Below, piece after piece: positions 6,001 to 9,000 of a stretch of DNA of 18,717 nucleotides. The DNA is from Candidatus Zixiibacteriota bacterium (GTDB taxonomy: Bacteria; Zixibacteria; MSB-5A5; UBA10806; 4484-95), in NCBI GenBank assembly GCA_029932605.1, contig JAOZPT010000049.1, positions 1 through 18,717 of the forward strand, written 5' to 3'. Every line of letters begins with the position of its first letter. Positions within the stretch are counted from its first letter, which is position 1. A program made the position numbers.

Positions 6001-9000
6001 TGCAAATTCCATGCTTGATGAATCAGGTCGTAGAACTCCGTTTAGATTTGGAGGGGCTGGATGTGATATATCATGCAACCGACCAGAGTTTAGAGAATGG
6101 GGCTGGAAGTTTCTCTATTAAAACCCATCGAAAGGATAATAAAATAGTTATTACACGTAAGCTTAATCTAACAAAAACAATATATCAACCTGAAGAATGG
6201 TTGGCTTTGCGTTCTTTGCTTTTATCTGACTCTCATGAGAAAAACCAAACCCTGTTCTTAAAGACAACAAAAAACACCAAAGACAACCACATCAAGAAAG
6301 ACAATACCAAGAAATAAAATTGAATGTATATCCCCAAATAGTTGTATATCTCTTTCTCGTTTGCATTTCAACGAAACGGCTATCAAATCTTGGTATACAT
6401 TGATGATATTATTTCATCGATTTCGTTTTTTGTAAGGAACGATTGTTATTCCCCTAATTCCATGGCAAACCCTCCAGTGGGTATTTTCTCTTATGCTTCC
6501 GTTTATAAATAACCTGCTTAAAGGTATCTGTAGGTATCGTTCGACAATTCGGTGAAGTTCCCTTACGCCATTTTGCGGGTCGTATCCTTTTTCAGCCAGA
6601 AACTTCTCGGCCTCCTTTTCAATCTCGAGAGTTATTTTATATTGGCGTTTAAGGTCTTCAGAAATTTCGTCAATCATCCGTCTTAAGATTTTCCTTACAC
6701 TTTTTTTATCAAGCGGCCGGAAAACTACCACTTCATCTAATCGATTGATAAACTCCAGACGAAAATGTTTAACAAGTTCGTTGACAACAGCCGTCTTGTT
6801 TAGCCCATTTCCCCGAGATGTGAAACCTATCTTTTTATCGGGAGAGATATTACAGGTCATAATAAAAATAGCGTTTCTCGCATCAACGGTCCAACCTTTT
6901 GAATCAGTGAGTCGACCATCATCAAATATTTGAAGCAGGAGATCAAAAACCTTGGGATGAGCCTTATCTACTTCATCAAGCAGTATAACTGAATACCGTT
7001 TCGTTTTGAGTTTGCCTGTCAGTTGGCCTTCTTCATCGTAGCCTACATAACCTGGTGGAGAACCTACGAGTTTGGCTATACTATGTTCCTCCGAATATTC
7101 AGACATGTCGATTCGTATTAGACCTGATTCGTCTTTGATAAGAGATTCAGCAATCAGCTTTGCCAGTTCGGTTTTTCCAACGCCACTAGGGCCAACGAAT
7201 AAAAACACAGCTAGGGGTTTCTTTCTTTTGCTTATGTTGGCATGAGCCATAAGAAGCCGTTCACACACCTGAGAGACTGCCTCATCCTGGCCAACCAAGC
7301 CTTTTTTTATAGTCTCTTCCAGTTCTGATAAACGCGACTTCCGAACATCTTCCAAATACCCCGCAATAACTTCAAGGGGAACTTCAATCTTCTCCGAGAG
7401 AACTTTCGCAATCGCCAACTCTGTGACTTCTAAACAAGTGTCTATACATTTATTGTTATCATCCGGTGTCATCCTCTTTTTGTCAACATTGTCCATCGCT
7501 CCCAGCCCAGGTATTCGTGTCTGAGCTCCTGCTTTATCGACCAGATCGATTGCCTTATCCGGTAGGCGGTGATCCGAATCGAATTTTATAGAAAGATCAA
7601 CTGCCGCTTCTAAAGCCCTATCGTTAATCCTGGCTTTATGATGTTTTTCCATCTTTGACTTAAGCCCTTTGAGTATCTCTATTGCTTCATCACGGCTCGG
7701 TTCGTTTATAATTATTTTCTCAAACCGCCTTTCCAGGGCAGAATCTTTCTCGATAAAACGTTGATATTCTTTAGCGGTTGTAGCTCCTATACAACGGATA
7801 TCCCCCCGAGCAAGAGCCGGTTTCATAATATTTGCCGCATCCAAACTTCCTCCAGCCAACCCGGCTCCCACAACAGTGTGCAATTCATCGATAAAAATGA
7901 TCACTTCAGGACGGCTACGAACCTCTTTTATAATTTTCTCAAGACGTTCTTCGAATTCACCCCGGTATTTGGTACCACCCACCAAAGCCCCCATATTTAA
8001 TTCGATAATTTTTTGCCCATCTATAACATGCGTATCCTTACCCTCGATGATTTGCATAGCTAAGGCATGCACGGTGGCAGTTTTGCCAACGCCTGCCTCT
8101 CCCACAAGCACCGGGTTGTTTTTTGAAAGGCGGGCAAGGGTTTGGATTACTTGAAGGAGCTCTCTGCGACGTCCTATAAACGGACCAAGTTTGCCTTCTC
8201 GAGCCTCACCTGTCAGGTCTCTACCATATTTCTCAAGTAAACTTTCACCTTCATAAATACTTTCGGGTTGCTTTTTTATCTTGAGCCTTCTGGATACGCT
8301 ATCTTTTTCAAACTGTTTTCCAGCTGTGTTTTTTCGAGATGCTGTTTGGACATTGTTATTTGTATTTTTAATCCATTTATTTGCTTTTTCAAGAATTATC
8401 CTATTGTTAAAAGGCTTAACGACATAATCCGAAGCTCCCGCTTCAATAGCCTTCTTTACGGTTGCTTCGTCCGCAAGACCGGTGGTAATTATTACGGGAA
8501 TAGAAGATGTTTCTGGATTTCCCCGAAAATTACGGCATACTTCGATACCATTGATGTCGGGCAACATTATATCAAGGAAAATACAATCGTATCTGTTTTC
8601 AAGTACCTTACCTGTTGCTTCGTAGCCGGTTAGGGCGCAATCGACTTCATATTCCTTAGTGGATAAAAGACGATTCTTTATGAGCCTTGATACAACAGGT
8701 TCATCATCAACGACGAGGATTTTTTTCAACTTCCTTACTCCTTAGGGCTAAGCCTGACTTCCCTTTTCTATAAGTTCTTTTACCTCCAACAGCTCTTTAA
8801 TCTTCTTCAACAAATCTTTCGGTTGATAAGGTTTGGTCATATAGGCGGATGCTCTTTCTTCTATGGCTTGTTTCATATCCTTAATTGAATCCCGAGCCGT
8901 AAGCATCAATACCGGGATTTTAGACGTCTGCTCGGATGAGCGCAACCACTGGCATACAGAATGTCCATCCCCCTCGGGCATCGATATATCCAATATTATA

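Follow-up and report, generated by a model that had tools for sequence, protein, structure and literature searches.

What kind of Clp motor carries a two-component receiver in the place of its N-domain, and does the receiver control it? The question is raised by a gene in the window, the whole 18,717-nucleotide stretch analyzed here, which is the entire contig C48 of the host genome (G000). The gene encodes a REC-Clp fusion of 771 aa as a single ORF with a TTG start. Pfam matches in the protein include Response_reg at residues 4-115 (1.4e-26), AAA at 207-340, AAA_lid_9, AAA_2 at 504-667, and ClpB_D2-small at 673-754; neither Clp_N nor UVR is among the matches listed (best 25 of 27 families). 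A contig from an independent study covers positions 5000-10622 ungapped with 7 different letters, and the same operon was found again in a near-identical strain (L111). The fusion is therefore real and not an assembly artefact, and the survey's finding of one reading frame joining a receiver to two AAA+ rings is confirmed by Pfam, the ORF call, and the independent contig. The parts of the gene are the following.

6414..8729, minus strand: REC-Clp/Hsp100 fusion gene, 771 aa, last gene of its operon (Pfam, independent contig)
8738..8743, minus strand: Shine-Dalgarno-like AAGGAG, 8 nt upstream of the TTG start (sequence)
8370..8729, minus strand: receiver domain, aa 1-120, D53 codon at 8571-8573; apparently REC-HDOD-derived (Pfam, model, tree)
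8241..8369, minus strand: predicted disordered linker, aa 121-163, with 14 additional aa in the other three clusters (model, alignment)
7509..8240, minus strand: AAA+ ring 1, aa 164-407, with Walker A K216, Walker B D281/E282, pore Y255, and arginine finger R334/R335 (alignment)
7425..7508, minus strand: middle-domain remnant, aa 408-435, unstructured, 25-79% identity among clusters (alignment, model)
6465..7424, minus strand: AAA+ ring 2, aa 436-755, with K519, D585/E586, pore Y561, R663, and sensor-2 R723 (Pfam, alignment)
6822..6830, minus strand: IGF tripeptide, aa 634-636, in a putative ClpP-docking loop of ClpA-like length (alignment)

With two AAA+ modules, Walker A and B motifs, arginine fingers, sensor-2, and pore tyrosines, the protein belongs to class I of the Hsp100/Clp family, and the catalytic and pore residues of both rings are intact. 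The survey had called it ClpC-type, a name that had to be given up. The host has its own ClpB and ClpC, the latter kept in a mcsA-mcsB-clpC-type locus whose McsA and McsB we take to be such from their sequences, together with a single ClpP, at C82:57114-57719, in a tig-clpP-clpX locus; the motor is a copy of neither ClpC nor ClpB. The receiver stands instead of the Clp_N of ClpC, and the coiled-coil M-domain is missing. The PDKA-to-GQ spacer is 90 in the fusions and, for their nearest relatives, 88 (median) in 111 sequences, versus 124 in host ClpC and 186 in ClpB, and the M region of the fusion model has no helix, with pLDDT<50 at 406-431; the middle domain, previously described as shortened, is rather essentially absent. 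The presence of IGF and a TIGR03346 score of 674 bits (cut-off 1232) also separate the fusion from ClpB, and a TIGR02639 score of 630 bits (cut-off 993) and the lack of Clp_N separate it from ClpA.

Phylogeny places the motor in a separate family. In a 177-row FastTree phylogeny, the four fusions found (see below) form one clade (100) within a 110-row family clade (98). Both clades are recovered at 100/100 in a 30-row IQ-TREE phylogeny, apart from host ClpC, and the AU test rejects a clade of the motor with host ClpC (p=2.3e-9). The nearest relatives of the motor are proteins of ~790-800 aa with a divergent Clp_N and without an M-domain. A motif specific to this accessory Clp family was found at 67 loci, in named genomes that span many phyla, and the motor was detectable in 64 of them. 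Genes for a Hanks kinase or PP2C lie within 7 kb in 48 of these 64 loci. Among loci of at least 10 kb, such genes were found in 33 of 35, versus 1 of 60 control ClpB/ClpC loci; the family loci are non-independent, some coming from one genome, the domain calls were made by small custom HMMs, and the controls are loci from a genome scan with residues 1-200 that was dominated by the generic Clp motif (80 loci). The fusion motor lies inside the clade of this kinase-linked family, but its own Clp_N and a kinase or PP2C neighbor are absent: the window contains no Ser/Thr kinase or PP2C, and the four Hanks kinases of the genome are on other contigs.

Several further observations concern this family and its surroundings. 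Loci L096-L108 and L147-L209 adjoin Hanks kinase-TPR, FHA-kinase, and PP2C genes and come from many phyla, including Methanocellaceae archaea. The Clp_N of the family has, in 84 of 116 proteins, a conserved H/R-R-S motif that might read phosphate. A deeper-branching member with Clp_N (L109:8741-11140, G021) is located between two-component genes, and no Ser/Thr kinase was found in 19 kb of that locus. A scan of viral sequences for the family motif gave 0 matches. A further Clp paralogue of 815-821 aa, absent from G000, was found in relatives (G005:C52, G002:C64, G011:C52, G021:C1:919117-921003); its ring 1 is 30-36% and its ring 2 ~40% identical to the query. Other related motors (P0007-P0009, P0021, P0193; P0157, P0237, P0263; P0169; P0200) are fused to a class III cyclase (N- or C-terminal), a CHAT peptidase, PP2C, or a beta-helix; domain shuffling is therefore common in the group. 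Where two homologues with a cyclase domain instead of Clp_N had been reported, a class III cyclase was found in 4 of the best 120, and 3 of these keep Clp_N.

The fusion itself is represented by four clusters at 90%, its own and three with 68-77% identity to the window copy. In a repeat search with residues 1-300 (7996 candidates scored), PF00072 was again found in 4 of the best 120 homologues, as the survey had counted, and a search with residues 1-135 had the same four clusters among its best 120; both searches were word-indexed. A HMMER search with residues 1-300 against 1.84 billion representatives, where a fusion hidden beneath a non-fusion representative would be missed, listed 150 matches down to 156 bits: 101 with Clp only, 48 with a receiver only, and 1 with both (P0004). 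Among 285 genomes of the phylum, the fusion was found only in that of the window. The conclusions here do not depend on the unpublished genomes G313 and G338. A motif scan of metagenomes gave 2 matches, one by chance and one from a near-identical strain, and a genome motif scan for the receiver gave 4 matches, none of them a receiver. Since the word-indexed searches led to the same four clusters and only one phylum genome has the fusion, it is rare and, judged from these sequences, of one origin, in line with the earlier remark that only a few close relatives possess it.

Rarity and a single origin might also mean that an accessory clp gene landed by chance in a response-regulator gene, where it is tolerated and slowly erodes while being of little use. 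The patchiness of the parent family (2 of 285 phylum genomes, with fragments in other genomes) fits such a history, as does the window copy, which has the longest branch of the four fusions and the largest number of departures from the family consensus (29, the range in the fusion clade being 19-29 at 273 conserved motor positions), although the consensus-defining rows have a median of ~5 departures and the comparison is thereby biased. However, all four clusters are full-length and open, with every catalytic residue intact, and the domains are conserved far above the linkers: identity among the clusters is 69-95% for the receiver and 68-89% for ring 2, versus 23-82% for the linker and 25-79% for the M remnant. 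A fusion of little use is thus unlikely, and the receiver is apparently under selection comparable to that of the motor. Among the strain variants listed, non-synonymous and synonymous changes number 6 and 5 in the fusion gene and 6 and 8 in its neighbors, a small sample.

The two-component partners of the fusion are encoded in the same operon, which consists of six minus-strand genes running from 14538 to 6414 in the order sensor kinase, receiver, REC-kinase, receiver, receiver, REC-Clp; the genes overlap or are spaced by 18-23 bases. Because the operon is read on the minus strand, the fusion is its last gene, although it had been stated to head the cluster. The reported set of neighbors, three single receivers and two histidine kinases, one with its own receiver, is upheld by Pfam. 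In the order of transcription, these genes are the following.

11776..14538, minus strand: HAMP-PAS-PAS-HisKA-HATPase sensor kinase, H684, first gene of the operon (Pfam)
11270..11779, minus strand: single-domain receiver, 169 aa (Pfam)
9579..11246, minus strand: REC-HisKA-HATPase kinase, H181, the predicted phosphate donor for the receiver of the fusion (Pfam)
9128..9613, minus strand: single-domain receiver, 161 aa, with a basic tail, a paralogue of the 132-aa receiver (Pfam, tree)
8748..9146, minus strand: single-domain receiver, 132 aa, grouping with the single receivers of the G220 operon (Pfam, tree)

By its motif, the 169-aa receiver (11270..11779) is presumably Rcp1-like. The REC-kinase has a weak GGDEF-like tail at aa 402-538, below the Pfam cut-off, and strong matches to this kinase were found in 7 of the 285 phylum genomes. 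Scans for promoters and terminators remained at chance level (22 vs 23.1 and 7 vs 7.0, respectively). On the plus strand, a DUF3857-transglutaminase gene and a DUF3857-DUF3858 gene (2332-6317) are convergent with the operon and end 96 bases from the fusion. Upstream of the operon, genes for a GYD-domain protein, a phosphorylase-superfamily protein, a 176-aa protein without a Pfam match, and a DUF6036 nucleotidyltransferase are located on the minus strand (15102-17590).

A DDEP start is common to the receiver of the fusion and the two downstream single receivers, and EDN-DHA-L is common to the receiver of the REC-kinase and the 169-aa receiver. These motifs hint weakly at two tiers, in which the sensor kinase would act on the EDN pair and the REC-kinase on the DDEP trio. 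A phosphorelay in the strict sense, as the survey proposed, is not supported, since no Hpt domain (PF01627) was found in G000, which is 99.96% complete; the same profile was found in 9 of 14 control genomes.

The receiver of the fusion has all the hallmarks of a response regulator: a (beta-alpha)5 fold, an acidic pair, a phospho-Asp, Thr/Ser, Tyr/Phe, and Lys-Pro, represented here by D8, D9, D53, T83, Y102, K105, and P106. PleD D53 is the aligned counterpart of D53. The fold of the receiver was judged from a separate domain model, the full-length model leaving the receiver unresolved; the domain model is that of a canonical receiver, with a pLDDT of 93.9 and a TM of 0.94 to VicR (8fk2). The residues that the survey had picked by eye (DD at 8-9, D53, T, and K) are thereby substantiated, and the receiver looks phosphorylatable. 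Residues of its helix 1 are different in P0005.

The origin of this receiver can be traced within the phylum. Close receiver matches were found in 3 of the 285 genomes, the host itself, G220, and G227, and in the latter two the receiver belongs to a REC-HDOD protein. The gene order in G220 (kinase-REC, receiver, receiver, REC-HDOD) is that of the window, with REC-HDOD occupying the slot of the fusion. The receiver of this REC-HDOD is 52% identical to that of the fusion; no other host receiver exceeds 41%. In a 35-row tree, which also contains P0285 as a third close REC-HDOD, the fusion receivers fall inside the group formed by the three REC-HDOD receivers (99/96), with that of G220 as their neighbor (93/85); the two single receivers of the window group with the two of G220 (100/96). 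The related REC-HDOD regulators are L269:4547-5944, L272:1486-2853, and P0285; a kaiB-like gene precedes that of G227, and in G012 a related kinase cluster (L267) has a kaiC gene with a kaiB-like gene before it. A local duplication of a neighboring single receiver, considered as the source, was unsupported and has been replaced by the REC-HDOD origin. The simplest history would thus be that the terminal REC-HDOD regulator of the operon exchanged its HDOD for a Clp motor.

No other finding argues as strongly as this descent for a receiver that still responds to the kinases of the operon; the operon link comes from one species and G220. Together with the phosphorylatable appearance of the receiver and the selection on it, the descent makes it likely that the motor is coupled to the kinases of the operon. 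Alternatively, the receiver may be retained as a structural cap or constant docking module, or it may draw off phosphate within the operon as a sink, and the motor would not respond to its phosphorylation. The linker is long (43-57 aa across the fusions), disordered, and variable in length, with no fixed receiver-ring contact in the model; the three single-domain receivers indicate that receivers without an output can act in this operon, and a sink would likewise retain D8/D9/D53/T83/K105. However, two single receivers already adjoin the fusion, the four clusters have kept the two parts joined while diverging by 23-32%, and a search of shorter proteins (5 matches among 3072 candidates) turned up neither a split version of this receiver nor one standing alone. 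We therefore regard a receiver without effect on the motor as unlikely.

In the ring-2 loop, IGF (634-636) has its aligned counterpart in VGF of B. subtilis ClpC, and T. thermophilus ClpB lacks it; the survey had noted the same contrast between the ClpC and ClpB of the host. IGF is exact in all four fusions despite varying flanking residues. The loop stretch differs in length from that of E. coli ClpA by no more than one residue, and that of B. subtilis ClpC is nine residues longer. Among 108 parsed family members, 91 have a hydrophobic-G-F/L loop and 17 have lost the motif. When residues 464-675 were modeled together with three chains of the host ClpP, the score was 0.53, versus 0.00 for the best control, a weak result that the predictor may owe to Clp-ClpP complexes already solved. 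Of 157 solved pairs, 116 attained the mark, as did 2 of 215 mismatched pairs; those at or below 0.60 comprise only 18 of the solved pairs and both mismatches. The model runs have at least 78% of contacts in common, with a partner pLDDT of at least 71.

These data bear on a further possibility, that a phosphorylated receiver governs a motor working without ClpP, as a remodeller or disaggregase that dismantles and releases signalling complexes. No clpP was found in the 64 family loci, part of the family lacks the motif, the docking score is weak, and ClpI enzymes exist both with and without such a motif (PMC10149685, in the passages concerned). However, host ClpC is also unlinked from clpP, so that gene distance says little about ClpP coupling; the invariant IGF and the docking model, weak as it is, also speak for docking. 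We consider a ClpP-free remodeller improbable. Docking of ClpP by the fusion is suggested by the motif, to which the model adds weak support, and a phosphorylation-controlled, ClpP-coupled unfoldase seems a moderately probable reading of the gene. Through it, a sensor kinase would probably control protein degradation directly.

How a receiver could control this motor is suggested by S. aureus ClpC. According to parts of the work on this protein, its M-domains form a resting state that the N-domain stabilises, M-domain mutants are toxic, and ClpC without N- and M-domains degrades GFP-SsrA as fast as the MecA-activated wild type (PMC5699869; PMC12583610). By this analogy, the fusion, having neither domain, needs some other control, for which the receiver is the sole candidate in the chain. 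In the mechanism proposed here, the terminal REC-HDOD regulator would have lost its HDOD and gained the two-ring accessory motor, whose family is normally tied to Ser/Thr phosphosignalling. D53 would be phosphorylated by a kinase of the operon, most likely the REC-kinase (9579-11246). Without the N- and M-domain brakes of ClpC, the motor would be active by default, and six tethered receivers would provide control. Receiver-receiver or receiver-ring contacts may hold the motor off; alternatively, clients may be recruited in one phosphorylation state only, as by a built-in CpdR. Because the linker is disordered and variable in length, pore gating, receiver-receiver contacts, and client recruitment fit better than a rigid lever. 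Unfolded clients would pass via the IGF loops to the single ClpP of the genome, and the signalling proteins of the operon itself are first-guess substrates.

In its full form, this proposal is tentative: a Hsp100/Clp motor may serve as the response regulator of the operon, with Asp phosphorylation replacing the N/M brakes of ClpC and switching ClpP-coupled degradation, and may have arisen when a Clp family linked to Ser/Thr kinases was rewired onto His-Asp signalling, a course parallel to that of REC-Lon and of the cyclase-, PP2C-, and CHAT-fused relatives. If true, signal-gated AAA+ proteolysis would be a recurring modular design, in which domain swaps carry the accessory Clp family from one signalling system to another. 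Clp proteases are known to be controlled via adaptors and N- and M-domains, and here a natural motor with neither domain has a receiver instead. A direct test of whether aspartate phosphorylation can switch an AAA+ protease is thus available: the two kinases, the motor, and one ClpP are all small enough for purification, and BeF3- mimics the signal. A working system would be a one-protein, kinase-controlled degradation switch; the rarity of the fusion limits its weight in nature.

Among known systems, ClpC of B. subtilis and S. aureus (3j3s, 6em8) shares with the fusion two intact AAA+ rings, pore tyrosines, and the ClpP loop motif (551 bits to 3j3s). ClpC has Clp_N and a coiled-coil M-domain, whereas the fusion has neither and forms a separate clade; consequently, it has no sites for MecA or phospho-arginine and no M-M resting state. 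E. coli ClpA resembles the fusion in the absence of an M-domain and in loop length, but its score (450 bits) is lower than those of ClpC (551) and ClpB (560). ClpE illustrates, as described in part of PMC13125188, that an autonomous partner of ClpP can have its substrates selected by another type of N-domain; neither ClpA nor ClpE has a receiver. ClpI (Jiang and Schmitz, 2023; PMC10149685) is likewise an accessory two-ring Clp beside ClpB and ClpC with a variable N-domain and with forms with and without the LGF motif. By the passages describing it, ClpI is set apart from the fusion as a protein of Actinomycetota with Clp_N and a ClpC-length M-domain, and the word 'receiver' is absent from them. 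With CpdR and RssB, the phosphorylation state of a receiver sets Clp proteolysis, and unphosphorylated CpdR binds the N-terminal domain of ClpX (PMC8973945; PMC7226468, in the parts consulted); these are separate proteins acting on a ClpX that keeps its N-domain, whereas the receiver of the fusion is joined in the place of that domain.

Full-text searches, which did not extend to most of the subscription literature, found no description of a receiver on a two-ring Hsp100/Clp; two censuses of response-regulator outputs by Galperin, also outside their scope, may list this architecture. 'Clp' and 'Lon' are absent from an archaeal census (PMC5847659), and no such fusion is described in the sections covered of PMC7159879 and PMC12471899. 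ESM Atlas clusters of 484-510 aa from Acidobacteriota have matches to a receiver and AAA_2/ClpB_D2-small; this lead to a receiver with a single-ring Clp D2 was unconfirmed, with both in one ORF in 0 of 20 hand-picked loci. In L235, a receiver gene lies just upstream of a D2-only gene.

The closest counterpart is DVU3303 of Desulfovibrio vulgaris, a Lon-protease response regulator proposed to need phosphorylation for activity (Rajeev et al., 2011; PMC3333781); the passages on DVU3303 in that paper contain the proposal only and report no phosphorylation test. Judged by these passages, the survey's 'new output class' was overstated, since a receiver-Lon and the same idea were published in 2011, and the fusion takes up the question then raised. 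Another ESM Atlas lead was followed in 20 hand-picked short Lon loci from 61 genomes; five of them have a full receiver-Lon gene and a sixth has a gapped one. The full genes, which lack the N-domain and, as in DVU3303, have the receiver inserted upstream of Walker A, are L220:2388-4421, L221:2443-4455, L222:2452-4557, L223:3805-5892, and L225:2367-4400 (genomes G391, G368, G388, G390, and G400), and L226 is gapped; several lie beside kinase genes. Like DVU3303, the fusion has a receiver in an ATP-dependent proteolysis machine and is encoded with a kinase; the loss of the substrate-binding N-domain is shared as well, on the receiver-Lon side as seen in L220-L223 and L225. It appears to be a selected, rare chimera with a traceable double origin, and it belongs with the receiver-bearing AAA+ protease machines, a known kind. 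DVU3303 is a Lon, which carries a peptidase of its own and has the receiver in front of Walker A, whereas the fusion is a two-ring Hsp100/Clp with an N-terminal tethered receiver and a predicted need for ClpP, independent of receiver-Lon in origin and far rarer.
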